Shown: in pieces, positions 12,553-60,233 of the stretch
How the letters are laid out: each line of letters starts with the position of its first letter
How positions within the stretch are numbered: position 1 is the first letter of the stretch
Origin: a virus
Lineage: Duplodnaviria; Heunggongvirae; Uroviricota; Caudoviricetes
Virus record (IMG/VR): IMGVR_UViG_3300003324_000363
Span: 17,571 to 81,570 of that record
Direction: 5' to 3' (one strand)
Length of the DNA: 64,000 nt
The notes under the pieces: model-generated
What the model saw: only the letters and a program-made list of their open reading frames with translations
Told to the model about the DNA's origin: nothing
The model's database searches: none
Program-made: the position numbers and the translations under genes

Positions 12553-12655
12553 TATTGATTCTGCTCCATTTTATCTGCACATGATTTGCATAGATACAGG
12601 TCATGTGTTCCTTTAACCCTGTGTACCACAGCTAGATCATTGCAAAATTCACACT

Positions 12656-13519: not shown

Positions 13520-13523
13520 AGTC

Positions 13524-25203: not shown

Positions 25204-25403
25204 GCCCTTCCCCTCGATGAAAAGAATGACGGATTGTATTGGAAAGAAAACCAAATATGGCATACTGGATTTCTACACATTACATTCCCTGCCTTATTGC
25301 CATCTTTAAAATAATGCCGAATTCTTGGAGCAGAATTACATACTTCACAAAGTTCTCCTTCTACATCTTCTATACGTTCCAAGTTGGCTGGATAAATTGT
25401 CAT
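25200..25403 (-). CDS. Zinc-finger protein, 67 aa
   Basis: CEVC...CRNPVCH. Confidence 0.35.
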   Translation of the reverse strand: MTIYPANLERIEDVEGELCEVCNSAPRIRHYFKDGNKAGNVMCRNPVCHIWFSFQYNPSFFSSRGRA

Positions 25404-28844: not shown

Positions 28845-29092
28845 CTTGAAATTCCACCAGTGTCTCTATTCAACATTTCCATAAATTTTGTCTTGGTGTT
28901 TTTTAGTAATTCTTCAAGCTGCATTGCTTCCTCGTTGTTGACATAATCTATATCTAGCACATTGCAAAATTTACGCATTATGAAATCTATATCTTCAGCT
29001 TTCATGTTAGTCTTGAGCAATTCATTCATGGCAGTTAGTGCTCCGAATCCATACCCAATCATAAATCCACGTTCTAAGGTGTTTTCAGTCAT
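28841..29092 (-). CDS. Hypothetical protein, 83 aa
   Basis: ORF. Confidence 0.4.
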   Translation of the reverse strand: MTENTLERGFMIGYGFGALTAMNELLKTNMKAEDIDFIMRKFCNVLDIDYVNNEEAMQLEELLKNTKTKFMEMLNRDTGGISR

Positions 29093-30185
29093 CGTCTTTC
29101 TTTTCCTCTCCTATTCCACCTTTGCCAATTGAAATCTTGACATCAGAGTATGGATGGTTTGGTGAGTCAACTATTTTTATAACCCGGTTTATTCCTGCCT
29201 TTCGTATGTAGATTCTATATGTGCTTGAATGTGCAACCACGTTGCCGCCAGTTGGCTTTATTGGATCGCCAAACATTACATCAGGACTTGCCATTACTTG
29301 ATTTGTAAATAGCACAAGTACGCCATATACATGGGCAATGTTTGTTAGGTGGTGCAGCAGCTTTTCCAGTCTATTCTGTCTGTCATACAATGTGCCACGA
29401 CCTGAAAACTCGGCTCTGTGTGCTGCAATTATACTATCAATAATCAGCATCTTTGTACCATATTCTGATACCCATTTGCCTAGCTGTTTTACTGTAAGCT
29501 CTAGATTGCTTGCATTAAGTATTCTATTGACGTATATCTTTCCTAGTGTTTCTTTTGCATCCATCCCATTTGCTTCTGCAATTTCAACAATTCTCTCTGG
29601 TCTAAATGTACCTTCTGTGTCTAGAAAGATTACAGAATTGCTACCTAGACCGCCTTGCTCTACTGGCTTTAGTGCACGTACTGCCAAACTATGTGCAACT
29701 TGTGATTTGCCAGAGCCAAATTCGCCATATATTTCATAGGTAGAACCTACTTCAAACCCACCTTGCAGCAAAGTATCAAACTTTTCTGAACCAGTTTTCA
29801 GCCTAAGTAAGCTGTTCCTTCTTTCATATTCTGCTGTAGCTGGCACAAATGACTTGCCAATGATTTCTTTTTCTCTAAGCCAGTCTTGTGCTTGCAGAAT
29901 TAACTGCCCGGCTGCTTCACGTTTCAAGTTAACATTATTTATCAAGTCTTCTGGATTGATAACAGCAAGATCAGGAATAGTTTCAACACCCATTACTTTT
30001 AGCTTCTTTACTACAGTTGGTGATATTTCAGGCAATGCCTTTACACTCAATTCTTTCAAATCTGTAGCTGTAGCTTCTATCCTTTCCTCTTCTACCTTTA
30101 CCTGTTCAACTTCTTTCTCTTCAACAACGGCACGTTTTGTATATTTTCGTTTTACTCTACCTTTAGGCAACGGAACATACAACAA
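29085..30185 (-). CDS. radA: RadA/Rad51-type recombinase. N-terminal helix-hairpin-helix domain plus RecA core.
   Basis: Walker A GEFGSGKSQ, then DTEGTFRPER, Walker-B LIIDSI and an N-terminal LKVMGVETIPDLAV HhH region. There is no in-frame ATG near the N-terminus. The listed start is TTG. Confidence 0.8.
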   Translation of the reverse strand: MLYVPLPKGRVKRKYTKRAVVEEKEVEQVKVEEERIEATATDLKELSVKALPEISPTVVKKLKVMGVETIPDLAVINPEDLINNVNLKREAAGQLILQAQDWLREKEIIGKSFVPATAEYERRNSLLRLKTGSEKFDTLLQGGFEVGSTYEIYGEFGSGKSQVAHSLAVRALKPVEQGGLGSNSVIFLDTEGTFRPERIVEIAEANGMDAKETLGKIYVNRILNASNLELTVKQLGKWVSEYGTKMLIIDSIIAAHRAEFSGRGTLYDRQNRLEKLLHHLTNIAHVYGVLVLFTNQVMASPDVMFGDPIKPTGGNVVAHSSTYRIYIRKAGINRVIKIVDSPNHPYSDVKISIGKGGIGEEKKDDD

Positions 30186-39771: not shown

Positions 39772-41589
39772 TTAGCTCCAGAAATTGAGTGTAAGTTGAC
39801 CACGTGTTATGGCTCGTATATCCTTTCCCAGCAACTGGAGAATATCGCCAAATGCAGATTCAAATGTCTTCTCATACTCTTTTTTGTCCAAGTCATTAAA
39901 GCTGTTTACTTTAATTGCTACACCATTGTGGGTTTTCCAGTAATATACAACATCACCGGCACTGGCGTTTGCCATCTGCCCTAGCTTTTTGTTTTGGTTC
40001 TCACTTTCATAATCTTCCCAATTTCTTGTAAGCTTGGTTGAATAGAATAGCTGGTTCAAGCTTACATTTCCTGCTCTAAATTCATCGTATGTTGCCTGTA
40101 ACAGTGTTGATGGGTCTAAGCCATTTGCATAGTCACGTGTAAATTGAGCAAATGCTTCATTAATCCATTTTGGTCTATCGTTCTTTTCTGCCTCTATGCC
40201 AGCTACAACAATATCACCATCTTCTTTCACCCCTATGTAGTGTTTTTTGCCTGTAATCATAAATCTTGCATAAGTTTTGTCATGCTCCAATTCCAAGCCT
40301 AGTTTTGCCTTTACATCTTCGATTATCTTACGTGCAGTTTCAGCATCAGAATTAGGGAACATGATAGAATCAGTGTCGCCATATATTACAGTGCAGCCAT
40401 GTGTTTTTGCTATTTCAATAATCTGCATGATATAGTGGCGTTCAAATGCTATTATACTGTCATAACATCTTACATCTGAATATTCATAGTATGGATTGTT
40501 GAATAAACCTGTTTTTGCATTCATTACAATTTTCAAACCATCTGCCATGACTTTATTGCCATTCCTTTTATGCACCATTCTTTCCTCACGCATTTCTGTA
40601 AACTTGGTAGTTACTGCACCTTTCTTCTGTTTGCATGACCATAGCAATGGTTTGTTTGGTACTTTTGAAGATTCTAAATCCCTGCAACATTCACAGCACA
40701 TTGCATCTGGGCTTATGTTATGCTTTATGATTATTGATGGATACAAGCTTGCAACGTCAAGCACTACAACATTTCTATAGTCACCAACAACTGGCTCTAG
40801 CACTATCGGCCCTTGTCGTTTCTTACGTTTTCCATGAGCTGCATCATTTGGCATTTCTGGTCTAAATTCAATAGGTGTTTCTGGCATTTTCATGTCACGC
40901 AGTATCTTTCGCCAGATTGAAGACATGCCAAAGTTACATATGGTTTGAATTGGAAGTCCTGTTTTATCTGCTAAAGCATACATTAATTTCATTAACCCAT
41001 AGTCACGTTTTGGCATCTTTGTTTTCTTGTCTATATCGCCAACCTGTGCCAGCTTGAATGTTAGTCTAGCATCGTTTAGACAGTATTCTTTCTGCTTTTC
41101 AACGGTCATTGATTCGGCAGTTGAACCTGTAATGCCTTCTGTCTTACCTTCACCTAGCAATGCTTTAGCTACACTTTGCAGTTTTTGATCTTTGTATCTC
41201 TTTTTGAAAATATAGTTTCTTACTACACCTTTATCAAATATCATAAACAGGTCAATATGTGTTCTTCCATGTACTGGCTCTGGAAGCATACGTTGTATCT
41301 TTCTAGGATTCACTATTGAACTTAGGTGATATTTTTGACACCTTTGGTGTAGCACATCAAAGTCTGACCCTTCACCAGTTGTATAGTAGCCAATGGTTAA
41401 TGGGTACTTCATTATTTTCTTGTTTATCTTTTCTAATAGTTCCTCTTCATCTGGGAAATCATCTAGATGGTAAACATCTTCATTGCCCATGTCGTCAACA
41501 AAAGCAGCACAATACAACTCCCCTGTTTTCTTCCATTCAAAGTCGAAAGCTGCATAGTTTTCAAAATTGTTAAAGCTAGACATTATCAT
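39772..41589 (-). CDS. polB: Family-B DNA polymerase. Start adjusted to MIMSSF... (the track start is 41715).
   Basis: Exo I FDFEW, Exo II YYTTGEGSDFDVL, Exo III YCLNDARL, motif A LDVASLYPSII, motif B KIVMNAKTG and motif C YGDTDS are all present. Confidence 0.9.
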   Translation of the reverse strand: MIMSSFNNFENYAAFDFEWKKTGELYCAAFVDDMGNEDVYHLDDFPDEEELLEKINKKIMKYPLTIGYYTTGEGSDFDVLHQRCQKYHLSSIVNPRKIQRMLPEPVHGRTHIDLFMIFDKGVVRNYIFKKRYKDQKLQSVAKALLGEGKTEGITGSTAESMTVEKQKEYCLNDARLTFKLAQVGDIDKKTKMPKRDYGLMKLMYALADKTGLPIQTICNFGMSSIWRKILRDMKMPETPIEFRPEMPNDAAHGKRKKRQGPIVLEPVVGDYRNVVVLDVASLYPSIIIKHNISPDAMCCECCRDLESSKVPNKPLLWSCKQKKGAVTTKFTEMREERMVHKRNGNKVMADGLKIVMNAKTGLFNNPYYEYSDVRCYDSIIAFERHYIMQIIEIAKTHGCTVIYGDTDSIMFPNSDAETARKIIEDVKAKLGLELEHDKTYARFMITGKKHYIGVKEDGDIVVAGIEAEKNDRPKWINEAFAQFTRDYANGLDPSTLLQATYDEFRAGNVSLNQLFYSTKLTRNWEDYESENQNKKLGQMANASAGDVVYYWKTHNGVAIKVNSFNDLDKKEYEKTFESAFGDILQLLGKDIRAITRGQLTLNFWS

Positions 41590-42691
41590 GCTCCTCCTGT
41601 TGGGATTTTCTGCCATATGCCAATGGATTTCTGATGCCTGCACAACCACTGTCTTCAAAGCACCATCCCAAGTTCTTGAGCTTGTCACAATTATTTGGAC
41701 TGTAGCCTTTATCAACTATAAAGTTTACCTGATAGTTTGTAACTGATTCCTTGTAATCAGGTGCATTCTTGAACATGTCGGCTATTTCATCAGCCGGCTT
41801 GCCTAGTTTGTTCATGTAGCTAACAAACAATATTCTTGCTGTATGTGGCACATTTTCACCTTTGCTAAATAAGTCCAGCACATGTTGGATGCATGGAGGA
41901 TATTTTTGTGGTACAAAGCTAGCTGTGCTAAACTGTATATTGTATTGCTCACTCAATAATTCAGCAGATTCAATTATTTGAAATGGCATCTTATTCATGG
42001 GCAATTGTAAGGAAGCAATACGGTTTACAAGCAGTTCTTCAATTTCATCTCTTGCAAAACGGATCAGCTCCTTTTCTGATAGTGAAACATAACCACCATG
42101 GACAACCTGATTTACTAGCTTCCAGTCCTTGCTATGGAATTTTACTGACCTTTTCAAGTATTCTGGAACACGTAGCAGGTATGCTAGTTTTGGCTGCCAT
42201 TCTTCACCATGTCTCAGTGCATTTTTCTTTTCAAATTCAATGATGTTTTTACAGTTCTCACAGTCATCAAAAATAGGTCGATGCTCTACTGCCATCTTTA
42301 AATCACGTCTTAGAATTTGTAATACAAACTCATGCATTGCTTTATCTCTAAGTTTAATGTGCTCTGTCAAGCTATCCAGTAAAAACTGCTCTGTTCGTTT
42401 GGCTATTGAAAGTGCAATCTTATGATAGAGTTTTGGATTGTTTGTTAATTTGCAAATTGATAGGATTATAATGTAAAGTTGCGCCTCTGTTTTTACATTT
42501 TCCAAGTTAGTATTGAATTCACTCTTTAGAGCAATATTGATTCGTGACATGGCTTTCTCTACCAGTGTTTCAATATTGGCAGCCTGCATTGTTTCCTCAA
42601 AAAATGAGTTTGGACTAGCAGGTTTTGCATCAGCTAGCCATGGGTATTTGGCTAGATCGTTTCCACCTGCTTCTATTATGCCAGTTTCCAT
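41576..42691 (-). CDS. priL: Archaeo-eukaryotic primase large subunit (PriL) with a C-terminal 4Fe-4S domain
   Basis: The C-terminal block YPPCIQHVL...KGYSPNNCDKL...WCFEDSGCAG parallels the eukaryotic/archaeal PriL FPPCM...KGYSY...C.K...GC iron-sulfur domain. Confidence 0.6.
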   Translation of the reverse strand: METGIIEAGGNDLAKYPWLADAKPASPNSFFEETMQAANIETLVEKAMSRINIALKSEFNTNLENVKTEAQLYIIILSICKLTNNPKLYHKIALSIAKRTEQFLLDSLTEHIKLRDKAMHEFVLQILRRDLKMAVEHRPIFDDCENCKNIIEFEKKNALRHGEEWQPKLAYLLRVPEYLKRSVKFHSKDWKLVNQVVHGGYVSLSEKELIRFARDEIEELLVNRIASLQLPMNKMPFQIIESAELLSEQYNIQFSTASFVPQKYPPCIQHVLDLFSKGENVPHTARILFVSYMNKLGKPADEIADMFKNAPDYKESVTNYQVNFIVDKGYSPNNCDKLKNLGWCFEDSGCAGIRNPLAYGRKSQQEEHDNV

Positions 42692-44766
42692 CCTTCCTCA
42701 CCTTCATAAGTGCCCCAATACATGAAATCGCCATCTTTTTTGTACTTTGCAAGAACTGATCTGGCATCTTCTTCTGTCCACCCATGATTTTCCATCAATC
42801 TTTGTCTTAGTTCTTTAGGAGTTGCAAAATATTCAGTACGTAATGTTCCGTCTTTTAGTGACTTGAATGCTGATCGTAAAATGTCTTCAGTAGATTGCTT
42901 TATCTTTACTTCTCTGGTTGGCATATCGCCATTGGCTATTGCTGGGTCTAGCTTTTGAGTTAGTGGGTCAAATGCTGTTATACGCATTGATGTGTCTAGC
43001 AGTTTTACAGCAACATCAACATCGACCATTTCAACTTCTGGCTTTTGTAAGTATCTAGCATGAGCTAATGCAAATCTAACTGCACTGTTGATGTATCTCG
43101 GAGTAATCAAGCCTTTCAGGTCTTCAACTTGCCTTTTCTTTTGATAGTATTCAACAATGCGTTGATAGATTTCAGGTGTTAGTTTTGGAATTGGCACATG
43201 TTTTGCTACATACATGATGTACTTTTTCATGGTTTTGAAGCCAAATCTTTCTTGTGTGTCATTCATGTATTCTTGCCAGTATTTGTCACTAAAGTTTTCA
43301 AGTACTCTTCGAGCCACCAATGCGTCAGTTTCTGGATTTGGTCTATCTAGTACAACAAAGATAGAGTCAAATCTTGTTATGAAACTAGGTGGCATGAATT
43401 TCAAATTCTTTTGTATGTCTTTTTGCTCATCCCAATATGGGAATACACTGTTGCAGGCAAATAGCCATGCACAATCTGATGGCAGTGTACCTTTCTCTGT
43501 TCCTCTTGCATATGAACAGGTTTTGTTTGACCCTATTTCATGCAGTCTTTGAAATATTTCTGGTGTGCTTTTATCAAACTCATCGCCAGCACTTATGCCT
43601 CTGTGACAGCTTGGGAAAAAACCGGGTGTTATCATAAATTGATTTGTATCTTTGTCTTTACTTGCTATAACTGTCAAACCTGATGGCGTACTTGTTGCAA
43701 ATGATGTGTAGGCTGAATTTGGTGCATATGATGCTGTTCTTAACAGCAAAGCTGTCTTGCCTGTTCCCGGTGTTCCTGCCAAAAGCAGGTTTATGCTAGT
43801 TGCATCAGAATGTGATGGGCTTTTGTTTAATGATTCTGAAAGCAAGTTTATGCTTGCACATTGTAAGATTAATGCTTCTTTTACATCTTCCATGCCAATT
43901 ACTTCTGGAGCAAATGATTTGACAGACTTCTCCCAAAAGTCAGGTTCTTTCGACATGCCGTTGCTGAATTTAGCTACATCGTCTGGTGTTAATTCATACT
44001 CTTCATTTTCATTTCCTGTATCTTCGATGTTGTTAGCCCATAGAACGTATGATGGTTGCTGCTTTTCTGTTGTTGGCATTTCAATTGTAAGATAGCCAAA
44101 TATGTCAATGCTTCTACCTGCATTTATTATTCTGTCACACAGGTCTTTGCCTTTTACCCATACTTTCAAATTCATTGGAGCTGTTGATGCTTTTACTGGC
44201 ATCAAAATTATTGTTCTGGTGTCTTCAACTTCCTGTTCAATTATTGCTGGGAACTTGTCTTTGCAGTTTATGCATTCTTTTGCAGGTCTAGCTTGCTCAA
44301 CATGTGATTGTGAAACTGTTATGCCGTCAAACCCACAGCCCATGCAGTGGTATGTCATTTTTCTTATCCATGGTGTGTTGCTTGTTATGGCACCTACTCT
44401 GCCATTTATTGTAACTAGCTTGCCGTTGTAAAACCCACCAATGTCTTTTAGCCCAATTCTACTGCCTGATATGTTGTGGAATCTTACTATTGGCTCGATA
44501 GCTGAATTGCCATAAATTTCGATTAGAATTAGTCTTACTGCATCAGTGAATGCTTTGTGTGCCAATGGAAAATTGTTTATGATCAAATTCAGTATTTTCT
44601 TGCCATTTTCACTTTCCATTAGATGTTTTCCATCAACAAACACAGTTCTGCTTTCTTGTGTCAGTCCTGATATTATATCTGAGTATATTTTGAAGGTATC
44701 TAGCTCATAACTATCAAGCCATTGCCTGATAGTTTCTACTGTCTTTCCTATTGTTGCTGTTGACAT
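42676..44766 (-). CDS. mcm: MCM replicative helicase
   Basis: N-terminal C4 zinc finger CMGCGFD...CINCKD. P-loop LLAGTPGTGKT. MCM Walker-B DEFDKS. MCM arginine-finger motif TRFDSIFVVLD. Confidence 0.85.
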   Translation of the reverse strand: MSTATIGKTVETIRQWLDSYELDTFKIYSDIISGLTQESRTVFVDGKHLMESENGKKILNLIINNFPLAHKAFTDAVRLILIEIYGNSAIEPIVRFHNISGSRIGLKDIGGFYNGKLVTINGRVGAITSNTPWIRKMTYHCMGCGFDGITVSQSHVEQARPAKECINCKDKFPAIIEQEVEDTRTIILMPVKASTAPMNLKVWVKGKDLCDRIINAGRSIDIFGYLTIEMPTTEKQQPSYVLWANNIEDTGNENEEYELTPDDVAKFSNGMSKEPDFWEKSVKSFAPEVIGMEDVKEALILQCASINLLSESLNKSPSHSDATSINLLLAGTPGTGKTALLLRTASYAPNSAYTSFATSTPSGLTVIASKDKDTNQFMITPGFFPSCHRGISAGDEFDKSTPEIFQRLHEIGSNKTCSYARGTEKGTLPSDCAWLFACNSVFPYWDEQKDIQKNLKFMPPSFITRFDSIFVVLDRPNPETDALVARRVLENFSDKYWQEYMNDTQERFGFKTMKKYIMYVAKHVPIPKLTPEIYQRIVEYYQKKRQVEDLKGLITPRYINSAVRFALAHARYLQKPEVEMVDVDVAVKLLDTSMRITAFDPLTQKLDPAIANGDMPTREVKIKQSTEDILRSAFKSLKDGTLRTEYFATPKELRQRLMENHGWTEEDARSVLAKYKKDGDFMYWGTYEGEEGWKLA

Positions 44767-48425: not shown

Positions 48426-49223
48426 TTAAACATTTTTGTATATCTGTGTGCCGTCCAGTCTAACTGTAGAAGATACTGCGTTCAAACTGCCATCAGTACC
48501 ATGTTGGTTATAAAATCCAATGTCACAATCACTATTGGCTGCAATCATTGAGGCATCTAAAAATCCATCCCCATTTAACTTTGCAAAACCATTTCCATCC
48601 TGCTTATCATACTCAACCCTTATAGTTAATCCAGCACCTGATTCTATCCAAGTAACCCTATATTTCCACCAAGCTCCTCCCGTTGCTGGCTCACTGGAAG
48701 TACCTACGGTCAATGCTTGTAGAGTTGTGGTAACAGTGTCACCTACATCCCTTTTTGACAATAAAAATCTATGAGTGGCCCCAGAAGCTTCACGTTCTAA
48801 TGTAAGAGCATATCCCACCCATGTATTTGTGCTTCCAGTTAGCCCGGAATTCGTTGATGCCGGAGGTCTAGCATTAAGCCGAAAATAGAACCCATGTACT
48901 AAGTTAGTTGTTGTTGTCTTGTACCAAGTCTCCATCTTACCTGTTTTGAAACCTAAAATATTCCTTCCATTTATCGTTCCAGCAGTTGGGAACCATTTTA
49001 TAACATCAGTGGTGCCACTAGCCACTTCTAAGCATGGTGATGACTGACCTGAAGGGTTGTCTACTTGTTGGGATATGCTCCCACCATGAGTGTTATAGAA
49101 AAAAGTCCAATCAGCAAGTGTCATTAATCCCAGTCCTCTTCTGAAGCTAAAGAGAATGTTGGGTCTGGAGAATTGCCCCAGCCTTCTTCTGTAACAAACT
49201 CTGTGCCAAATATCAATTCCCAT
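48426..49223 (-). CDS. Fiber/receptor-binding family protein. This is the body of a split gene, in a different frame from its N-terminal anchor ORF.
   Basis: Shares the G..G.METW/EVW/EMW beta-sandwich motif family with 49348..50082, 50079..50993, 50999..51646 and 58070..59104. Confidence 0.5.
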   Translation of the reverse strand: MGIDIWHRVCYRRRLGQFSRPNILFSFRRGLGLMTLADWTFFYNTHGGSISQQVDNPSGQSSPCLEVASGTTDVIKWFPTAGTINGRNILGFKTGKMETWYKTTTTNLVHGFYFRLNARPPASTNSGLTGSTNTWVGYALTLEREASGATHRFLLSKRDVGDTVTTTLQALTVGTSSEPATGGAWWKYRVTWIESGAGLTIRVEYDKQDGNGFAKLNGDGFLDASMIAANSDCDIGFYNQHGTDGSLNAVSSTVRLDGTQIYKNV

Positions 49224-49351
49224 CCTTCCTGTGCAACTCCAGTAAATAAGGGATTATCGTTAGAAACAATGCCGCCTACTGTTCTAAACGGCCAGTACTC
49301 TGGGTCTTTGAATCTTTGTGTTGTATTTATATTACGTTTATCTTTTATCAT
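49124..49351 (-). CDS. Conserved N-terminal anchor module of the fiber family (MIKDKRNINTTQRFKDPEYWPFR...). It ends at a stop and overlaps the body ORF by 100 nt.
   Basis: Near-identical N-terminus to 50079..50993 and to the TTG-initiated ORF at 51647-51823. Confidence 0.45.
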   Translation of the reverse strand: MIKDKRNINTTQRFKDPEYWPFRTVGGIVSNDNPLFTGVAQEGWELIFGTEFVTEEGWGNSPDPTFSLASEEDWD

Positions 49352-50082
49352 AGTGGTGGATCGGGAACAGTAGTCATCTTGATATTGTCAAAATATGCAT
49401 ATCTGTCGAGACTGTTATCAAAAGAGCCGCCACTATCACCAAACATGAAGAGTTGCTCAGGATTATCTTGCACAGGAACAGCCGGCACCCATTTATTGTT
49501 ATAGATTTCTGTAGTACCAAAAAGAGGGTCGCCTATCAAGTTGAACCATCCGGTATCAACACTTGAACCGATGCCTCTGCCCCAGCATTTCATTTCAAAT
49601 TTATTAGCAGTTCTGTCAGTCCATCTGAATTGAATCCTGAATCCACACCATTGGTTTGTTACAAAATTGTCAGGCAAAGGCGTGTCTGCAAATCCTCCAC
49701 TGCCGGGAGTATTGGGATAAACTGACGTAAGACTAATTCTATGGTTCAACAAATCCCAGTTGATAGCATAATATTGAGTAGAACTAACGATAGGGTATCG
49801 TTTCAAATATACATATGGGCCATTTGTTACAAATCCAGCATTTCCTTGCTTTGTCAAATCCCACATTTCAAACACGCCATCTGTTATGCCTTTTACATTT
49901 GCACCATTTACAGTTCCAAAAGCAGGATAGAATAGTCTTTTTGTAGAAAAACCACCACCAATTGTCCATGGTAGTGAGCCGACTGTCAATGCTGGAGTAA
50001 TGGTGTTATCTTCAACTACTATTGTTGGTGTATTTTGAGGCACTACATTGTCGTCATATATACGCCAGTCGAGCCACGTCAT
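49348..50082 (-). CDS. Fiber/receptor-binding family protein with no anchor module
   Basis: Paralog of the other fiber bodies (GITDGVFEMWDL). Confidence 0.55.
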   Translation of the reverse strand: MTWLDWRIYDDNVVPQNTPTIVVEDNTITPALTVGSLPWTIGGGFSTKRLFYPAFGTVNGANVKGITDGVFEMWDLTKQGNAGFVTNGPYVYLKRYPIVSSTQYYAINWDLLNHRISLTSVYPNTPGSGGFADTPLPDNFVTNQWCGFRIQFRWTDRTANKFEMKCWGRGIGSSVDTGWFNLIGDPLFGTTEIYNNKWVPAVPVQDNPEQLFMFGDSGGSFDNSLDRYAYFDNIKMTTVPDPPL

Positions 50083-50993
50083 GGTACTAAGTAACTCACC
50101 TGTGTGTGTTTTGTGAATTTTACAGAATCTAACAGAACAAAGTGGCTGCCAGCTTGGCCATGGGTAAATGAAAAAATAATTCTACATGTTGGTGCATCTT
50201 GTGCAAGTACATATCCTCCTGATTGTACGGGATATACACCCGGCACCAAATCGTCAATGTCGGCAAACCATGCATTCTTTGAATGTCTAGCAGCATTAAA
50301 ACCTACATTACCATTTTTCAGTAACACACCATCAAGTTCGTAAGTAGTAAAGAACAAGTTGAAAAATTTTGGATGTGCTATTGAGTACCAGTTTATTTTA
50401 TGATGATGCCATGTATTTGCCGTATGTGTCATTGTTGTAGCTCCTAGATTGGCAGTTGCATTTCCTCCACTGTCCAATCTGTCAAGCCTAAATTGGCTAC
50501 CACTCTGAAGATAACGATAACTTGTATCTGCTGGAGATGTGCTTCTTGTCACCAAGCTAAACTTTGGTTTTAATCCAGTAGAGCTCACAGATACATCTGA
50601 ATACATATAGAAATCCAACTCACCAGAGTATATGCCTTGCAAGTTGCCAGTAGTTCCGTTGATCGTTTCTGCATAGAATATTGGATTTTGTGAGCTTGTG
50701 AACAATACTTTTTTCACAGTTCCATGAGGCGCACCACCACTTGGGTCAGTTACATAGCTATAAGTTCCAGTGCCACCGTCAACCCATGAAGCTGATGCTC
50801 CACCTTCAAATGTGTCAGTTCCAATTACTGTTGAAGCACTTGCAGTTGGCAAAATATAATCCCATGTTTCAAGAAAATATGTTTGATACTGACGATAGTT
50901 AGAAACAACTTCACCTGAAAGTGTTCTAAACGGCCAATATTCTGGCTTTTTAAATCTTGAAAATGAGTTAATTTCACGTTTGTCTTTAATCAT
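50079..50993 (-). CDS. Fiber/receptor-binding family protein, full-length (anchor plus body in one frame)
   Basis: The N-terminal MIKDKREINSFSRFKKPEYWPFR anchor is fused to the body. Confidence 0.6.
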   Translation of the reverse strand: MIKDKREINSFSRFKKPEYWPFRTLSGEVVSNYRQYQTYFLETWDYILPTASASTVIGTDTFEGGASASWVDGGTGTYSYVTDPSGGAPHGTVKKVLFTSSQNPIFYAETINGTTGNLQGIYSGELDFYMYSDVSVSSTGLKPKFSLVTRSTSPADTSYRYLQSGSQFRLDRLDSGGNATANLGATTMTHTANTWHHHKINWYSIAHPKFFNLFFTTYELDGVLLKNGNVGFNAARHSKNAWFADIDDLVPGVYPVQSGGYVLAQDAPTCRIIFSFTHGQAGSHFVLLDSVKFTKHTQVSYLVP

Positions 50994-50998
50994 TTATC

Positions 50999-51646
50999 TC
51001 ACGTTTTTGTAAACAATCTAAATCCATCAAATTTCACATATGTTGCATTTGTAGTGCCATTTACGAGATAGCCTAGCCCAGCTTCTGTATTAACATCATC
51101 ACTGTTAGGATTTGTATCTGCAAAATCATTGAATGCAAACTGCCAGCCATTCCCATCAGCTAAATTGTAAAGCACTCTAATGTAGAGGCTATTGCTTGGG
51201 CTGCTTTTCCACCAATACGCACGTAATCCTCGCCATACATTTGGGTCTGTAAATCCAGTTATTGTTCCTGATGTAACAAGTGTGTTTGGGGAACTGTTAG
51301 TTCCTCTTACGACTCTTATTGCAGATGTACTGGCAGCATAAACATGATATGCGTTAGAATTGCTCCATGAAACAGTAGGATTAGCTCTAAATGTTAGTTG
51401 CCAATTAACAGTACTTAGAGTAGAAGTGCTTCTTATTCCCCATACTTCCATGCTGCCTTCTGTAAACCCCTTTGTGGTTTTTCCTTCAACAGTGCCATTT
51501 GTTGGATAAAACCCTTGCATATCAGTCAACGCACTTGTATGCCAGATTTTTACAACTGGGGAAGCTTCACCAACAGGCGGGGTTGTTGTTGTATCACTTT
51601 CAATTACTGCAAAATTATTACTTACACTCCATTCATTTTGTGCCAT
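50999..51646 (-). CDS. Fiber/receptor-binding family protein body (MAQNEW...GFTEGSMEVWGI)
   Basis: Paralog. It is preceded by a separate anchor ORF in another frame. Confidence 0.55.
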   Translation of the reverse strand: MAQNEWSVSNNFAVIESDTTTTPPVGEASPVVKIWHTSALTDMQGFYPTNGTVEGKTTKGFTEGSMEVWGIRSTSTLSTVNWQLTFRANPTVSWSNSNAYHVYAASTSAIRVVRGTNSSPNTLVTSGTITGFTDPNVWRGLRAYWWKSSPSNSLYIRVLYNLADGNGWQFAFNDFADTNPNSDDVNTEAGLGYLVNGTTNATYVKFDGFRLFTKT

Positions 51647-51823
51647 TAATTAAACGCCTCATGTACCAATTCTGTAAATGTTGGAAACGCCAAGTTAAAA
51701 GGCTCATAAACAGCAGATGAACCTAGCTGATTTGTAACTTGTTCTCCAGAAAGTGCACGAAACGGCCAATATTCCGGCCACTTGAATCGTTGTCCACGAT
51801 TTATGTGACGTTTGTCACTTGAC
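51647..51823 (-). CDS. Anchor-module ORF (LSSDKRHINRGQRFKWPEYWPFR...EAFN*) with a TTG start. It ends 1 nt into the ATG of 50999..51646 in the -1 frame.
   Basis: Read from the sequence. Homologous to the N-termini of 50079..50993 and 49124..49351. Confidence 0.4.
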
Positions 51824-51825
51824 AA

Positions 51826-53919
51826 TTACTTTCTCATCATCCTTCTGTTTGGTGTATAATTCTTCTTATCACCGGTGTATGTTGGTCTAGTATAGCCATT
51901 TCTGCTTACAGATTGTGGTGCTTTTGTTGATGTAGTGTTTTTGCTTACTGCATCTTGGCTAGCTTTTAGCAAATCTTTTCTAAGTGCATAAATATCTTCA
52001 ACTGATGTTGTGTTAAATGTGCCAAATCCTATTTGTGCAATCCAATAATTGTTTACAACACTGTTTGCAACATGGTCAACCCGTCTATCTATGCTGTTTA
52101 ATCCGTAATATGGTAAAGTTAATGTGATGTTATTACCGGGTCTTACGTACATGAAATTGTTACTTGAGTATGCCGTATTGCCTGCTCCAGCATATACAAA
52201 AGCTGGGTCAACAGCCACACTTCCTGTAAGTGTTGTATTTTGCACTCTCAACAATTCAGCTGCTGCCATTGTTTGTGCATCTGTTTTGGAAGTTATTGTT
52301 CTATCAAGCAATACAAGCTGTCTTGGAACAGGTCTTGGTGATGTTTTAGATTGGGTGTTCTTTGGTGTGCCATCAATATGGAGATAGCTAATCAATGTCG
52401 GCTTTGAAATGTCAAATGTGATATTGCTAGTATTTCCATTTGTAGCTTGCATTATGAATTGAATTTCATCAATGGTTCTTGGCACTGTTGTGTCTGTACG
52501 TAAGTCAACGTCAGATGCCCAGAAGCTTGTATCAACTTCATCAGGATGTGCAGCTGCATAGCTAGGTAATCTTATCGTCCATTCTTTATGCATTCCTTTT
52601 GACGGCACCCAACTTGGGTCATTAACCAAGTTATTTGTAAGCCAATATCCTTTATAGCCATTCAAGCCGGTACTTAGTTGTATTTTAAATGTTGACAGGT
52701 CAAAATTGTTTTGTAATCCAAAATGCAATGTATCCCAGTCAGCTTCAACATAACCAAGCCCAGTCCATGCTCCACCGGCAAAAGGCGTGCCTTGAACAGT
52801 TGTTGATTGAGTGTCAGTTGTAGGAATAGCAGGAGAACGCAGTGTTACACAAACATCAGAATAGTATGTGCCATTGTTTTGGTATGGTCGCCATCCCAGC
52901 AAACAGCCACTGAAGCAGCCAGAAACAACTGTGCCTGCTTCTAAGAATCCTTGATATACATCAGTTCCGGGCAGTCCACCCGGTAAGCTTCTAACTTCCC
53001 AATACTTGTTATTGGTGCAATATGAATCACCTGTAGGTGTTGCAATTGTCGGCCCTGTAAATGGAGCAGATGCACTTACAATTACAGTATCATAGTGATA
53101 TTCTTCATCACTCCATTTGAATTTAGGATTGCCAATAATGTAAGATTCTGTAAGTGGATTTGTTGCCGGATAACCAGCATAGCCTACAGGAATAATCTTG
53201 ACAAGCTTGTTTGCCATAACTTGGAATTCCATGTTGCACATTGTCATTATTTCTTGGAGTGCTTTACCACAGTATGAGCCAATGAATTCCTTTCCAACAA
53301 ATGGATTGTTTAGTGTAGGATCGCCTAGTGATTCAAACAGTGCTTTCATTCCAGCAGCATCAAGAAATGAAAAATACTTTGCAGCTTTAGTAAGAATATC
53401 ATAAACAACCTGACTTGCCTGTGGTGCTGTAGTTCTATAATCACGTTCAAATGCACGTCCATATAGCCAGAAATCACCATAGCTTACTCCAGAAATATGC
53501 AAAACACGTTCTCTATCTTCACCTACAAGTGGCTCAACTTCTAAAACTACACCATTGTAAACACTGCAATAAACAACATCAGAGTCTGACTTGCATCTAA
53601 TTTCAATTTCATCCCCACCACGTATAACCCAACCATTGTTAGTTGTATATACTCTATCACTTGAATCTAGCAATGTTCTAAATGTGAATCTAGAATCCAC
53701 ACTGCCAGAACTGTCATCAAAGACTGGCAATACAACAGAAAATGGTGATTGCTTGCCACCACTTGCATAATGCCATTCCAAGCCGCCATAGTCTTTGTCT
53801 GTAATTACTGGATAGTCATAATAATACTTGGTTGACCCATCAGTATGTGTGAATGATGTATAGCCACTTAATGCTGTATCAATAATATGTCTGAGCTGAA
53901 AGGTTGCCTGTACTGTCAT
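51826..53919 (-). CDS. Large tail or baseplate structural protein in the Dit/Tal-like position, downstream of the tape measure. 697 aa.
   Basis: Assigned by position after the tape-measure protein and before the fibers. No motif-level support. Confidence 0.5.
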   Translation of the reverse strand: MTVQATFQLRHIIDTALSGYTSFTHTDGSTKYYYDYPVITDKDYGGLEWHYASGGKQSPFSVVLPVFDDSSGSVDSRFTFRTLLDSSDRVYTTNNGWVIRGGDEIEIRCKSDSDVVYCSVYNGVVLEVEPLVGEDRERVLHISGVSYGDFWLYGRAFERDYRTTAPQASQVVYDILTKAAKYFSFLDAAGMKALFESLGDPTLNNPFVGKEFIGSYCGKALQEIMTMCNMEFQVMANKLVKIIPVGYAGYPATNPLTESYIIGNPKFKWSDEEYHYDTVIVSASAPFTGPTIATPTGDSYCTNNKYWEVRSLPGGLPGTDVYQGFLEAGTVVSGCFSGCLLGWRPYQNNGTYYSDVCVTLRSPAIPTTDTQSTTVQGTPFAGGAWTGLGYVEADWDTLHFGLQNNFDLSTFKIQLSTGLNGYKGYWLTNNLVNDPSWVPSKGMHKEWTIRLPSYAAAHPDEVDTSFWASDVDLRTDTTVPRTIDEIQFIMQATNGNTSNITFDISKPTLISYLHIDGTPKNTQSKTSPRPVPRQLVLLDRTITSKTDAQTMAAAELLRVQNTTLTGSVAVDPAFVYAGAGNTAYSSNNFMYVRPGNNITLTLPYYGLNSIDRRVDHVANSVVNNYWIAQIGFGTFNTTSVEDIYALRKDLLKASQDAVSKNTTSTKAPQSVSRNGYTRPTYTGDKKNYTPNRRMMRK

Positions 53920-53921: not shown

Positions 53922-55010
53922 CTAACCCACTGCCCCAGCTATTACGTGGTATTGTGACATGTCAGCTTCAGCTTTCAATCCTTCATCTGCACTAACGTTT
54001 ACATTGACATCTATGTGAGCATCTTTGTTGCTAAGAAATCCACGTCCAGCAAATAGATTAGCAAATTCTTCATGGTAGTTTGTAGCCAAACCAGCAATCA
54101 AGCTAAGCCCACCACCTATTGCTGCTCCTATTGGCCCACCCATCATAAAGCCACCCAATGCTCCACTGCCTATGCCACCAAGCAAACCTACAGCTTTTGT
54201 TGTTGGGTCTTCTGAACCTGCTGTCAAGCCAAGTGCTAAAGCTGTTCCACCAATCCCAATTCCCAAGCCAGCCAGACCACGCATTCCACCTAATCTACCA
54301 AGTATTCCACTGGATGAACCTAGAGACGCACTTGTGTTTCTGCCAAATATTGGCAGCCCACCCAATTCGCCAGCTGATGTAGATACAGCACTTGTTCCAA
54401 TGAAACCTTTAATCATATTTGCAATTCCACCTTTTCTAGCTACAGTTGCTTGTAACATTCTCAAGTCTAGTGCTGTTTTACCAATGTCGCCAGCAAATCC
54501 TAGAGCAGACATTCCTAAGCCAAGATACATGCCCGGCAATTGCATTGCCAGTTGCTGTTGTGCTTCCATGGCTTTATTCAATTCTTTTTGAGCATCTGTA
54601 GCTTCTTTTGAACCTGCCCCATATTGTGCCATAGCAGCTGCCACCCGATCTTTAGCATCAGCTACACGTTCATCAGCCTGAGCTTGTCTAATTTGAATAG
54701 CATTATACGATAGAAATATGCTGTTTAGCCTCATGCCTGCATGACCTATGCCAGACATCAATCTGGTAGTTTCATAGAATGTTTGATGCCCAAGCATGAA
54801 TTCACGTCTAATGAAACGTTGTTCACGATAAGCTAAGTTAACTGCCTTAGATTGCTGCAACCATGAATCTTGGTTTGCTTGCAACAATGTGTTATTTTCA
54901 TTAATATCTTGACGAACACCCTGAAATGAGCCACTAATGCTGCTTATGGCTTGACTGGTCTGGTCATTAACACTAATATCAATTTCAACACTTCCGGCAG
55001 AAACAGACAT
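53922..55010 (-). CDS. Tail tape-measure protein (short, 362 aa)
   Basis: Coiled-coil N-terminal half followed by Gly-rich hydrophobic repeats (GLGMSALGFAGDIG...GLAGLGIGIGGTALALG). Located right after the chaperone frameshift pair. Confidence 0.6.
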   Translation of the reverse strand: MSVSAGSVEIDISVNDQTSQAISSISGSFQGVRQDINENNTLLQANQDSWLQQSKAVNLAYREQRFIRREFMLGHQTFYETTRLMSGIGHAGMRLNSIFLSYNAIQIRQAQADERVADAKDRVAAAMAQYGAGSKEATDAQKELNKAMEAQQQLAMQLPGMYLGLGMSALGFAGDIGKTALDLRMLQATVARKGGIANMIKGFIGTSAVSTSAGELGGLPIFGRNTSASLGSSSGILGRLGGMRGLAGLGIGIGGTALALGLTAGSEDPTTKAVGLLGGIGSGALGGFMMGGPIGAAIGGGLSLIAGLATNYHEEFANLFAGRGFLSNKDAHIDVNVNVSADEGLKAEADMSQYHVIAGAVG

Positions 55011-55198
55011 GGTTTATTTTTACCTACGAGTGCCTCTATAGGAACTATTGCCATCAGCATTTTCAAGTGTCTTTTTGAACTGTTTGTCTTTCTCTAGCCA
55101 TATGTGTATCATGTTTTCAACAACATATGCTGGCTCTGCCAAGTATTCTTCCCATGTAAAACCAGCTGGGAAATACTTCATTTCATAAACCAATATAG

Positions 55199-55534
55199 CT
55201 ACATGCTCGCCTGTGAGCTTGGCTCTTTTGAGTTGCCCTGCTGCGAGGTATCCGATGTTTCTAAAAAAGCAGGGTCAATAGAATTCATCTTAAGCACTGC
55301 ATTACGTAAAACATAGCCATCAGTTGGGTCTAATTCATAATATTTTTGTGCAGTTATTGCTCCACTTGTGCTTCTTTCAGCTAACAATGCGTGCAATGTT
55401 CGCCAATCTATCTTGCCAGTAATTTGATTTGTGCATTTATCATCCAGTTCTAAACGTTCTCCCCATGGAATTCTGTGTATTTCAAATGTTTCCTTAGATA
55501 CAGGTAATTCCACAGTCTTAGTATTGGCAGACAT
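55199..55534 (-). CDS. Tail assembly chaperone, G-like product, with a -1 frameshift extension (GT-like) to about 55023
   Basis: Assigned by position between the major tail protein and the tape-measure protein. A slippery heptamer TTTTTTA sits in the zero frame at 55262-55268. The -1 frame stays open for ~57 codons and ends 13 nt before the tape-measure ATG. Confidence 0.55.
   Translation of the reverse strand: MSANTKTVELPVSKETFEIHRIPWGERLELDDKCTNQITGKIDWRTLHALLAERSTSGAITAQKYYELDPTDGYVLRNAVLKMNSIDPAFLETSDTSQQGNSKEPSSQASM
55262..55268 (-). other. Putative -1 programmed ribosomal frameshift slippery site (U UUU UUA)
   Basis: Seen in the sequence. Aligned to the zero frame of the chaperone ORF (GCT TTT TTA). 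Confidence 0.45.
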
Positions 55535-55561: not shown

Positions 55562-56440
55562 TTAGGATGTGCCAAATGTCAAACTTGAACCCATGTAAGT
55601 CATTTGTTTTGAAACAATGTCTTCTGGCTTCATTGGGTCTAGAGACAAACCTGATGTTTTTGCACTGTTTATTGTTACAGACCATGATGCAGAATTGTCA
55701 ACATTGGTAAGCTTTAGCTTCATTGTTCTTGTTGTGTCATTTGCAATGTCTGAATATTCGTCAAGTGCAGTGCCAGAATCCATATCACGTGTTACCATAA
55801 GATGATGGTCACGTGCTACAGTTTCAAGTGCTCTTGTAGCTCCTGTTGATGGTGTCAATCTACGGATAAAGTTCTTGTTGACTTCAAATTCAACATCCGT
55901 CCAGTCTGTTAATGCTGAACCATCCTTTGAAACTGTTACATATCTGTAATAAATTGGGTCAACATCAGTGCCTGATGGGTCAGCAGCATAACTTCCAGAG
56001 CCAAGTGTTGGAGCTGTAACATCAGTTGTCATTCCAACCAAATCCAAGTCAACTTTAACTTGGTCTTCAATAGCACATCTTACACGTGCTCTATCAATGT
56101 ATGCTCCAAGCAATCTGATATACAGTGAATCTGTTGCATCACGCAATACCAGTGAAAATGGCGTACCCCATGGTGAAGCATTAGCACTTAGCAATGTTGT
56201 AAGAAATGAAACTTTGTTTGGAATAAGTGAAAGCTTGGCTTCCGGCTTTACTGACATGCGTTGATTAATGTAAAAGTCAGGACTCCCAGATGCACGTACT
56301 TGTTTATAGTTTGGATTTGGAGTTGGTGTTCCACTGTCAACATAACCCATGAATACAAAACTTGGATTAGACGGAGTTGTACCTGCTACAGATTCTTGTA
56401 CCCAATATGCCTTCCAACTTGACGGAAGAATTAATGTCAT
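55562..56440 (-). CDS. Putative major tail (tube) protein. Paralog of 59148..60233.
   Basis: Sits immediately upstream of the chaperone and tape-measure genes. Shares SWKAYW...NPSFVF...LRGAY...TRAL blocks with 59148..60233. Confidence 0.5.
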   Translation of the reverse strand: MTLILPSSWKAYWVQESVAGTTPSNPSFVFMGYVDSGTPTPNPNYKQVRASGSPDFYINQRMSVKPEAKLSLIPNKVSFLTTLLSANASPWGTPFSLVLRDATDSLYIRLLGAYIDRARVRCAIEDQVKVDLDLVGMTTDVTAPTLGSGSYAADPSGTDVDPIYYRYVTVSKDGSALTDWTDVEFEVNKNFIRRLTPSTGATRALETVARDHHLMVTRDMDSGTALDEYSDIANDTTRTMKLKLTNVDNSASWSVTINSAKTSGLSLDPMKPEDIVSKQMTYMGSSLTFGTS

Positions 56441-58069: not shown

Positions 58070-59104
58070 TTAGACCACCGTGAATGACAATGTTGATTCT
58101 GTGCTTACATTGTTACCAAAGTCTGTAACTCTGACATATGCAGTATGAGCACCAAGTGAAATGCCTGTATATAATGCCTGCCAGTCAATTGTAATATCAT
58201 CATCTGTAGTTGCATTCACAGAAGTTAATGCCCCAATATTTATGCTAGAATCAGTAAGTGCCATCCAACTTCCACTGTCAACTTTTACCTCAACTGAACT
58301 ATCTGCATAGCTTCCACTATGAACAAATCCCAAGTCGTCTGTAGCAGTTCCATTTATTTTAAAGCCGCCAGATGGTATATCTGGGTCATCATTATTGTTT
58401 TGAATTTGGCTTATTGCAATTGTTGGTGTACCATCAGCAGGTATGCTAGAGGAAGCAGACAGTTTCACATCGTCAATTTTTCTAGATGTGTCTGCTCCTG
58501 TTAAATACAACCCAATTGTCATTTGGTTGGTTGCTGTTAGTGGCTGTGTGTCTATAGCTGCAATTGGACTATCTGGGTTTACAGAAATCAATCCTGCTCC
58601 ACCATTGTCATCAAATTCTATCTTGAAAGCAAGACTTGAAACTGTGTATTGCCACCATGTTAGCTTTAGTTTTTGCCATAACAGGTTGTTTTGAGTTGAA
58701 AAAGTAGGACTGAAATTAAATGTAGCCAATGTTGTTGCTGTGCCAGAAGTATATTTTATCAATTGAAAGCCATCAGTTACACTGGTTCCATAATTTATTG
58801 TTGCAACATAGCCAGAAAACCCACTTACTCCAGAAGATGGAATATTTTTGCCATAGCAGAAAAAGCCATAATTAGCATCAGTTGCTGTACCTTTTCTTAT
58901 CCATGCTTCTAATGTTCCTTCATTGATTCCTTTAGCTCTTTTACCATCAACTGCTCCTGTTATTGGGTACATGAACCTTCTCGTTGAAGCAGCACTATTA
59001 ACATCTAAACATGGAGCAGCCATACCTGATTCTAAAGGTGCAGTATCAGAACTGTCTGATGTTATTGTCCAGCCAGTTGGTTGAAACCAGTCAGAAAGAA
59101 CCAT
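58070..59104 (-). CDS. Fiber-family beta-sandwich protein with a C-terminal Ig-like domain
   Basis: GINEGTLEAWIRKG matches the fiber-family motif. C-terminal T/S/D-rich beta repeats. Confidence 0.5.
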   Translation of the reverse strand: MVLSDWFQPTGWTITSDSSDTAPLESGMAAPCLDVNSAASTRRFMYPITGAVDGKRAKGINEGTLEAWIRKGTATDANYGFFCYGKNIPSSGVSGFSGYVATINYGTSVTDGFQLIKYTSGTATTLATFNFSPTFSTQNNLLWQKLKLTWWQYTVSSLAFKIEFDDNGGAGLISVNPDSPIAAIDTQPLTATNQMTIGLYLTGADTSRKIDDVKLSASSSIPADGTPTIAISQIQNNNDDPDIPSGGFKINGTATDDLGFVHSGSYADSSVEVKVDSGSWMALTDSSINIGALTSVNATTDDDITIDWQALYTGISLGAHTAYVRVTDFGNNVSTESTLSFTVV

Positions 59105-59147: not shown

Positions 59148-60233
59148 CTACCAATCCTCTGTGAATATTGCAGTGTAGCTTGGTTCTGGGTTGCCTGCTC
59201 CTGAAGGTGGTTGCCCTACTATTGGTTCTGCCGGTGTGCCCCATTCTTCTGTAAACAATTCTGTCATTCCTGTTGGACTTGAAGTTACCGGAGCATCAGG
59301 TGGGCTTAGAATTGTTGATGCTACAGATGTGAAGGTTATGCCATTTGCTGAGTAAGTGTAACGTGCTTCACTGTCAGTTACTTCACCACTTGCAGTTGCT
59401 TGTTTTTGACCATCAACCATAATTGTGCCTGTTGGCTGTGCATTGGTAAGTGTGGCACCCCATGTTTCTGTTGATGTTGTTAATTCTAATTTCAAAGTAG
59501 ATGCTGTTCCTGCAATTATGGCTGAGTTTTGAGTTAATGCGTCACTGGCTAAAACTGCTCTATCTATTGAAAACTTGATTTCTGTTTTTACATGGGCTAA
59601 AGCTCTAGTTGAACCATCTGTTGGATTGATTCTACGAACAATTTTCTTTGCTACAACAAGTTCAAATTTTGACCATACCTCAATAACATCCCTGCCTGTT
59701 GCTGTATCTATAACACCAATATTTCTTATCTGAACATTTTGAACAGGTATGCTTGTTACAGCAAACTTTGGGTCATTTGCAAAGACACTTCCAACAGGGT
59801 CTGTATCTGTACTTTCAATACTTGTTGCTATAACGCCAAGCTCAATTATAACATACGCATCAGCTTTATTTGTTGCTTTTATTGCACATCGTTCAACATA
59901 TGCTCCACGTAGTATAACATTCAACTTTTCATCAGTATTTCTAAATATTAAAGTGAAGGGCTGAGTTGTATTTATAAAATCATTCAGTATATCTAAATCT
60001 GATATTTGTAACGTGATTGTGCAAGAAGGTTTTACTGCCATCAGTTGAGTAGAATATGGAAATAGATTGCCACTAGCCATCGTGTTTTTGTATTTTAGTT
60101 TAGGGTCAACATTGAATTGTGTAATGCTTGTTAGAAATACAAAAGATGGATTTGTTGGTGTTATGCCCGGCAATGTTTCTAGACAGTAGTAAGCTTTCCA
60201 ACTTGTTGATGTGACAGTTTGTACAGTGCTCAT
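59148..60233 (-). CDS. Structural protein paralogous to the putative major tail protein, with an extended Thr/Pro-rich C-terminus
   Basis: Homology blocks with 55562..56440, seen by eye. Confidence 0.5.
   Translation of the reverse strand: MSTVQTVTSTSWKAYYCLETLPGITPTNPSFVFLTSITQFNVDPKLKYKNTMASGNLFPYSTQLMAVKPSCTITLQISDLDILNDFINTTQPFTLIFRNTDEKLNVILRGAYVERCAIKATNKADAYVIIELGVIATSIESTDTDPVGSVFANDPKFAVTSIPVQNVQIRNIGVIDTATGRDVIEVWSKFELVVAKKIVRRINPTDGSTRALAHVKTEIKFSIDRAVLASDALTQNSAIIAGTASTLKLELTTSTETWGATLTNAQPTGTIMVDGQKQATASGEVTDSEARYTYSANGITFTSVASTILSPPDAPVTSSPTGMTELFTEEWGTPAEPIVGQPPSGAGNPEPSYTAIFTEDW

Follow-up and report, generated by a model that had tools for sequence, protein, structure and literature searches.

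The 64,000-nucleotide (nt) stretch of viral DNA analysed here (the window; positions 17,571 to 81,570 of IMG/VR record IMGVR_UViG_3300003324_000363) contains an array of putative fiber genes in which a conserved N-terminal anchor module is fused to a lectin-like body in one gene and stands as a small gene of its own, in front of a separate body gene, in two others. Are the small genes remnants of broken fusions, halves of a protein that is joined by recoding, or complete genes in their own right? The array is read here, with a probability of roughly 60%, as the receptor-binding apparatus of an archaeal siphovirus-like virus, built from cassettes in which an adaptor protein holds a free lectin-like body non-covalently. 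Judging from the gene structures in the window and in its relatives, the recurring unit is a pair of genes, the first for an adaptor and the second for a free body. The array thus consists of three such cassettes and not of one intact and two broken copies, because the fused gene is itself followed by a free body and the bodies behind the two small anchor genes belong to a lineage that is always free. Among the explanations offered in a preliminary description of the locus, the exchange of receptor-binding modules on a constant anchor comes closest to the evidence, but its framing as fused versus split genes has to be amended, since the fused gene has a free partner as well.

By its gene content, the window belongs to an archaeal tailed virus, since it encodes the archaeal-type proteins MCM, PriL (the large subunit of the archaeo-eukaryotic primase), PolB and RadA/Rad51 together with an HK97-gp10-like protein and a tail-tube-like protein. 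All window genes are encoded on the minus strand. In the 5' to 3' direction of this strand, the tape-measure-like gene (53922-55010) stands directly upstream of p697 (51826..53919), a protein of 697 amino acids (aa) that is presumed, from this position, to be a distal-tail or baseplate protein and that has no Pfam or PHROG match. It is followed by A1 (51646..51825), an anchor-only adaptor of 59 aa with a TTG start, and by B1 (50999..51646), a free lectin-like body of 215 aa that starts with MAQNEW. The second cassette consists of A2B2 (50079..50993), an adaptor of 304 aa with its own body, of which anchor and body can be read directly as one open reading frame (ORF), and of its partner B3 (49348..50082), a free body of 244 aa that starts with MTWLDW and ends with PDPPL. 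The third is formed by A4 (49124..49351), an anchor-only adaptor of 75 aa, and B4 (48426..49124), a free lectin-like body of 232 aa that starts with MTLADW. Two small membrane-type ORFs come next. The coupling within the three pairs (A1+B1, A2B2+B3 and A4+B4) is tight, with TAATG overlaps at A1/B1 and A4/B4 and an ATGA overlap at A2B2/B3.

The anchor module, with the consensus DKRxINxxxRFKxPEYWPFR, occurs three times in the window (in A1, at the N-terminus of A2B2 and in A4) and nowhere else in it. Pairwise BLAST comparison of the three, in a 10-protein set, gives E-values from 5e-13 to 1e-11, and an anchor hidden Markov model (HMM) matches just these three among the 1037 six-frame ORFs of the window, in agreement with the preliminary description. 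The TTG of A1 aligns with the ATG of the two anchor paralogs. In the AlphaFold2 (AF2) model of A2B2, residues 1-44 form a helix of low confidence, with a predicted local distance difference test score (pLDDT) of 43-51, which fits a peptide that folds only on binding a partner. This partner is probably p697. Orthologs of p697 with 33-42% identity occupy the same position in three relatives (L005, L008 and L017) and are always followed by PEYWPF-type anchors, and more distant clades of p697-like proteins (L016/L010 and L019/L020) pair with other adaptor N-termini, so that the type of anchor co-varies with the clade of the p697-like protein.

Behind the anchor of about 38 aa, the adaptors continue with units of some 15 aa in tandem, each of which ends in (T/H/Y)E-x-(W/F); an adaptor has one to four of them in the family and one to three in the window. 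A1 has two of these repeats after anchor residues 1-38 (..VYEPF and ..VHEAF, ending at residues 41/56), A4 has three (..AQEGW, ..TEEGW and ..SEEDW, ending at 42/56/72) and A2B2, with its anchor likewise at residues 1-38, has one (FLETW). In relatives, the motif ends fall at residues 42/57/72, 44/60/76, 41/57/73, 43/58/73, 27/42/57/72 and 25/40/55/70. In several genomes, the anchor-only adaptors stop at the last W/F or within two residues of it. Two such motifs at a distance of 13-17 residues are found in 5 of the 140 window ORFs, A1 and A4 among them. The N-terminus of the free bodies (..L-x-D-W) resembles one more repeat end, and it aligns with W70 of A2B2.

Next, the bodies were compared. 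The window contains five paralogous bodies, namely B1, B3, B4, the body of A2B2 and B0, which belongs to a gene pair outside the array. The preliminary description had recognized a group of four to five by the motif G(F/I)(T/K/N)(D/E)G.(M/F/L)E.W; the group stands, and the motif, in the form G(F/I)xxGxxExW, is present in B0, B1, B3 and B4, which are mutual paralogs with E-values of 1e-5 to 1e-18, but the A2B2 body deviates from it (QGIYSGELDFY). Its membership follows from profile comparison, as an HMM built from the canonical bodies only matches it at an E-value of 1.7e-11 and hhalign gives a probability of 94.8%. Despite its divergence, the A2B2 body is by these matches a true homolog of the others.

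An exhaustive profile search with the five bodies identified 41 homologs outside the window, nearly all of them free-standing proteins of 205-243 aa with M.L.DW from Met-1. In the 41-sequence alignment, the free bodies begin with M-x-(L/V)-x-(D/E)-W, a start in which M1 never varies and W6 is kept in at least 90% of the sequences. Because the aligned free bodies all begin in this way, the start of B4 can be placed at ATG 49124 (MTLADW). ATG 49223 is merely the first start codon of the open frame, and the 100-nt overlap between A4 and its body (49124-49223) in the preliminary description is an artefact of taking the longest ORF. Three homologs have N-terminal extensions: in P0035 and P0040 this is the PEYWPF anchor, and in P0036 it is a divergent N-terminus that aligns weakly with it. 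The fused bodies (A2B2, P0035, P0036, P0040 and a 301-aa protein of L005) are each other's best matches, and free bodies find their best matches among free bodies. Based on this pattern, B1 and B4 are not the halves of a recently broken fusion but members of a lineage whose bodies stand free in all genomes seen, and the A2B2 body falls into a separate clade of always-anchored bodies. B1 and its ortholog P0009 in L008 share 50% identity, and both are free-standing.

The AF2 model of B4, computed with 41 sequences, has a pLDDT of 86.9 and a predicted template modelling score (pTM) of 0.86. Foldseek matches it, at a probability of 1.0, E-values of 2e-6 to 1e-4 and template modelling scores (TM-scores) of 0.5-0.6, to the carbohydrate-recognition domains of Emp46p/Emp47p, legume lectins, GH16 glucanases, heparinase I and PL7 alginate lyases. 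Among viral models (BFVD), it matches concanavalin A (ConA)-like proteins, including one of a Nitrosopumilus spindle-shaped virus, proteins with the Mtd N-terminal domain and proteins of haloarchaeal tailed viruses. In the A2B2 model (pLDDT 70), the body is ordered and takes the same ConA-like fold from about residue 50, with matches to ConA-like lectins and lyases. The bodies are therefore modelled as lectin/glucanase jelly rolls of the concanavalin A-like type, whose two curved sheets superpose on those of known members. Both B4 and the A2B2 body are thus predicted to have the fold of the superfamily that includes Emp46p/Emp47p/ERGIC-53, legume lectins, GH16, heparinase I and PL7/PL14. Unlike those proteins, B4 and the A2B2 body match no Pfam family and no PDB sequence. 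The bodies have no Pfam hit at E-values up to 0.1 and so fall into no curated family such as Laminin_G_3 or Lectin_leg-like, and the best match of the body profile to the PDB sequences, at an E-value of 0.31, is not significant. The immunoglobulin (Ig)-like tail that the preliminary description assigned to B0 is weakly supported, by a Big_13 match at an E-value of 0.052, below the Pfam cut-off. In the Pfam and PHROG scans of the array proteins, nothing was found except this match and the weak Phage_tube_2/phrog_290 match of the tail-tube-like protein p292.

A repeat tail next to a free body is also found away from the array. B0 (58070..59104), a free body that starts with MVLSDW and carries the extra, weakly Ig-like C-terminal domain, starts 43 nt after the end of p361 (59148..60233). 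The latter is a paralog of p292 (55562-56440; BLAST E-value of 1e-34) with a C-terminal extension of 60 aa. The extension contains ..LFTEEW and ..IFTEDW, and its last residue is the W of the latter. The score of its alignment with the tail of A4 was reached by 14 of 5000 shuffles, and that with the repeat protein of L016 by 1 of 2000. L005, which is syntenic with the window, has a single tube gene and neither p361 nor B0, so that p361 and B0 behave as a module. The gene for p361 is flanked by the putative capsid genes on one side and by those for the head-tail connector on the other, and this second tube paralog may be a scaffold for neck or tail decoration.

The related loci, some of them from a farmland soil metagenome and others from other environmental runs, show that the cassette is conserved. 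A repeat-bearing gene adjoins a free-body gene in 10 loci, and in the relatives it does so wherever the flank is readable; the contexts of P0007 and P0010 are too short to inform. On L005, a 35.6-kb contig that also encodes MCM and PriL, p605 is followed by the fused P0035 (the A2B2 ortholog), a B3-like free body, the fused P0040, a free body, the fused 301-aa protein and another free body. L010 has the fusion of divergent anchor and body, P0036, followed by a B3-like free body. In L005 and L010, the B3 orthologs P0023 and P0028 thus come after orthologs of A2B2, and the two genes overlap by ATGA as they do in the window. The order in L008 is p711, a 173-aa protein with anchor, three repeats and a domain of about 100 aa, a free body, a 75-aa anchor-only ORF, P0009, a 79-aa anchor-only ORF and a free body. 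The 75-aa ORF (L008 3522-3749) is the A1 ortholog, has three repeats and shares VYEPFNL and TE.LHE.F with A1; its junction with P0009 is TAATG, identical to A1/B1. Anchor-only ORFs of 75 and 79 aa are intact in the independent assemblies L007, L008 and L009. Comparison with related genomes, as proposed in the preliminary description, accordingly shows that the split state is conserved and that the fused state of A2B2 is conserved too (P0035, P0036).

The adaptor of the cassette varies in its make-up. It can consist of anchor and repeats only (A1, A4 and the 75- and 79-aa proteins of L008), of anchor and repeats with another domain (the 173-aa protein of L008 and proteins of 184 and 208 aa in L017), of an anchor, one repeat and a ConA-like body within the same protein (A2B2 and the three fused proteins of L005), or of repeats with a different N-terminus (L016, L018, L019 and L020). 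L017 has two cassettes, in which the 184- and 208-aa proteins, each with anchor, three repeats and C-terminal domain, are each followed by a free body. In L016, p589 is followed by a 74-aa protein with four repeats (VTEDW, SEIW, TEQW and TETW-stop) and without the PEYWPF anchor, and then by a free body. Repeat proteins stand beside one free body in L013 and in L018, two in L019 and three in L020. The same anchor can also carry a different, larger distal module: in the 605-aa protein at L017 8666-10483, which comes after the two cassettes, an anchor-like N-terminus (..FNKPEYWVF..) is joined through a Gly/Ser-rich linker to a large C-terminal part that is unrelated.

Automated annotation would hide this system, because gene calls miss or truncate the adaptors. 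The repeat protein at about 1870-2215 of L020 is not called at all in the public assembly, and in L005, at 13135-13233, the 301-aa fused protein is called from an internal start, which removes its anchor. Searches with the anchor and its neighbours returned little. In a word-indexed protein search, the anchor profile matched only A1 and A4 of the window, recorded from a single JGI contig of 99,684 bp, and missed the anchor-bearing P0035 and P0040 too. Neither A2B2 nor p697 led to related loci in viral contigs, the RFKxPEYWPFR DNA pattern had no match in viral contigs, and the anchor profile had none in metagenome contigs. Four matches to the FKxPEYWPF DNA pattern in metagenome and genome contigs turned out to be chance matches once translated. 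No sequence identical to P0001 is on record.

Taken together, the array may work as follows. The anchor peptide of each adaptor would attach to p697, and the repeats behind it, in A2B2 supplemented by a lectin-like body of its own, would hold on the virion, non-covalently, the free body encoded just downstream. Docking would take place between the repeat region and the N-terminal heptapeptide of the body, M-x-L-x-D-W-x. The TAATG and ATGA overlaps would couple translation of the two genes, so that the partners are made together, and the different bodies would give the virion several carbohydrate-binding specificities. This scheme is supported by the adjacency of the genes, by their conservation and by the analogy with phage systems that is drawn below.

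Several points weigh against this scheme. The proteins are known here from their genes alone, and we infer from these both their location on the virion and the binding of adaptor to body. Carbohydrate binding is deduced from the predicted fold, and the same fold houses glycoside hydrolases and polysaccharide lyases. The anchor is modelled only at low confidence, with the pLDDT of 43-51 given above. Repeats and downstream bodies do not match in number, with five repeats and two bodies in L019 and four repeats and three bodies in L020. A rule of one repeat per downstream body was therefore rejected. In L018 the body precedes the repeat protein, which is the reverse of the usual order, and the 605-aa anchor-bearing protein of L017 has no free body after it. 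In L011 and L012, the upstream flanks are too short for the adjacency rule to be applied.

Two other readings accept the split genes as functional. In the first, adaptors and free bodies do not bind each other, and the repeats and the M.L.DW peptide are both ligands of a common site on the baseplate, on p697 or another tail protein, to which each would attach independently. The likeness of the body N-terminus to a single repeat end, ..(D/E)W, would suit such a shared ligand, as would the mismatch between the numbers of repeats and bodies. However, this reading offers no reason why repeat and free-body genes are strictly adjacent across diverged genomes, including those without the PEYWPF anchor, or why p361 and B0 are paired outside the baseplate module. 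It also leaves an anchor-only protein, which has no receptor-binding domain, without a role, and we consider it unlikely.

In the second, the anchor-only proteins serve the downstream body during assembly, as chaperones or scaffolds, and are no part of the mature particle. Small genes beside fibre genes often encode chaperones in phages, and both the tight translational coupling and an anchor predicted as disordered or helical at low confidence would be expected of a chaperone too. However, the same anchor heads A2B2, P0035, P0040 and the 184-, 208- and 605-aa proteins of L017, which have complete lectin bodies or other C-terminal domains and for which a structural attachment peptide is the better fit. 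The anchor type also co-varies with the baseplate-protein clade, and the repeat tail recurs on a tail-tube paralog, which is a structural protein. Given these observations, a chaperone role is improbable.

That the split genes result from a single-base assembly error, or are recent pseudogenes of fused anchor-body genes, can be put aside with much more confidence. If a single base were added within the final two codons of A1 or A4, the frames would, in principle, be joined. However, the split state is conserved across divergence and in independent assemblies, which argues strongly against both versions: the 75- and 79-aa anchor-only ORFs are intact in L007, L008 and L009, the TAATG is kept between B1 and its ortholog at 50% identity, B1 and B4 belong to the always-free lineage with conserved Met-1 and W6, and the anchor-only ORFs of several genomes end precisely at the end of a repeat. 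Only a very small chance is left to this explanation.

Recoding, finally, was suggested by the geometry of the junctions, as in both split pairs the frame of the body lies at -1 to that of the anchor. As read directly from the sequence, and as reported in the preliminary description, the TTG of A1 follows the TAA of p697 immediately and in frame, and the TAA of A1 and the ATG of B1 overlap as TAATG. The A4/B4 junction has the same overlap, B1/A2B2 has a gap of 5 nt, and B3 is joined by ATGA overlaps on both sides, to A2B2 and to A4. Overlaps of 1 or 4 nt occur in 34 of the 115 adjacent minus-strand gene pairs of this genome (10 of them of 1 nt), also at unrelated genes such as MCM and its upstream neighbour, and such a stop/start overlap is a normal gene junction in this genome. 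Neither an in-register X_XXY_YYZ heptamer nor a homopolymer run of at least 5 is present in A1 or A4. Since a TAA lies in the B1 frame two codons upstream of the B1 ATG, there is almost no window for an A1-B1 fusion. Upstream of ATG 49124, the B4 frame stays open for some 43 codons, but its translation there resembles no member of the family. In relatives, adaptor and body are joined by TAATG, by ATGA or across gaps of 3 to about 55 nt, so the geometry required for recoding is not conserved. Also in relatives, p697 and the adaptor overlap by 1 or 4 nt or are separated by 9 nt. In L008 and L017, the two genes lie in different frames at this junction, so that the relatives do not conserve readthrough from p697 into A1. 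Programmed -1 frameshifting, or readthrough at p697/A1, as a source of anchored and free forms from one locus is thus hardly credible.

The cassette reading can be compared with the anchor-branch systems of bacterial phages. In K1-5/K1E/SP6 gp37, G7C gp66/gp63.1 and the KP32virus groups A-D, a first receptor-binding protein (RBP) carries the tail-anchoring N-terminus; gp37 of K1-5 is a pure adaptor, and the first RBP of KP32 group D is truncated (PMC6872550). The second RBP has a short conserved N-terminal peptide, down to 7 residues, e.g. MALxxLV (PMC6872550). The array resembles these systems in that the first protein anchors, with its own receptor-binding domain being optional, and the second RBP is encoded beside it. 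The distal domains vary and the anchor and the peptide are constant, and the short conserved N-terminal peptide on the second RBP, next to a neighbouring repeat gene, is a feature that is found here as well. The parts are different, however. No T7 gp17-like anchor was found in A1, A2B2 or A4 by Pfam and PHROG scans at E-values up to 0.1, and no T4gp10-like branching domain was found by Pfam and PHROG either; its position is occupied by the tandem repeats of about 15 aa ending in ..E-x-W/F. The heads are small ConA-like lectin jelly rolls here and beta-helical depolymerases there, and the virus is an archaeal, siphovirus-like one with up to three tandem cassettes. The interaction of adaptor and RBP has been established experimentally in the bacterial systems, whereas here it is deduced from the genes. 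With this difference in mind, the array resembles the adaptor or anchor-branch logic, in an archaeal virus and built from unrelated parts, and K1-5 gp37 and KP32 appear to be the closest working analogues.

A further parallel is found in the lactococcal siphovirus TP901-1, of which the baseplate adaptor BppU, encoded just upstream, holds the separately encoded small receptor-binding protein BppL. Unlike BppU/BppL, the proteins described here have no Pfam hit, and the adaptor is far smaller (59-79 aa) and repeat-based.

The remainder of the window gives further information on the virus. Its own archaeal-type replication and recombination set is located at 39772-44766 and 29085-30185 and consists of MCM, the primase large subunit, RadA/Rad51 and a PolB that includes an RNase H-like exonuclease. 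The MCM of the window shares only some 25% identity with those of haloarchaeal tailed viruses and an Altiarchaeum virus, and among cultured viruses no MCM comes nearer than this. Among 50,697 phage records, megablast found no match to the DNA of 48.0-60.7 kb and tblastn found no homolog of p697. A soil archaeon is a reasonable guess for the host. Between the tail-tube-like and tape-measure genes, a 111-aa gene (55199-55534) has an in-register T_TTT_TTA heptamer at 55262-55268 on the minus strand, from which a -1 shift reads without a stop into the next ORF of 57 aa (55020-55193). This looks like the canonical frameshift of a tail assembly chaperone of the lambda G/GT type, and it marks the place in the module where recoding is plausible. 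A 486-aa protein encoded at 23803-25263 has a domain of the nicotinate phosphoribosyltransferase family (Pfam NAPRTase, E-value of 2e-13) and is possibly the product of an auxiliary metabolic gene for NAD salvage in an archaeal virus. At 5549-6658, distant from the structural module, a 369-aa protein with a C-terminal Big_7 Ig-like domain is encoded, which may be a further surface or adhesion protein. L017 also encodes a Big_7 protein, of 513 aa (12443-13984), near a TrmB-like regulator.

A more general idea, which we offer tentatively and hold to be doubtful as yet, is that the repeats of about 15 aa are the portable docking socket of this archaeal virus group, each capturing the M-x-L-x-D-W of one body, and that this socket can be grafted onto unrelated scaffolds. 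If so, a three-repeat adaptor would hold three bodies or one trimer, and a socket placed on the PEYWPF anchor, on other N-termini or on p361 would display lectins at different places of the tail. Host-range modules would then be attached by plug and socket, in a system whose evolutionary origin is separate from that of the bacterial T4gp10-like branching domain.

For these junctions, a false lead has been removed, as neither recoding nor gene decay is supported there. Almost nothing is known about host recognition by tailed viruses of non-halophilic archaea, and for these the array provides a testable parts list, consisting of the anchor peptide, the repeat 'socket', the N-terminal heptapeptide 'plug' and the ConA-like lectin head. 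The pairing of repeat and peptide is previously undescribed, and the underlying principle is already known from bacterial phages. The comparison points to an independent origin, from unrelated sequences, of the adaptor-plus-branch logic of bacterial phages. Should docking be confirmed, the conserved peptide and the repeats could serve as markers of receptor-binding genes in metagenomes of archaeal viruses and help to predict the swapping of modules.

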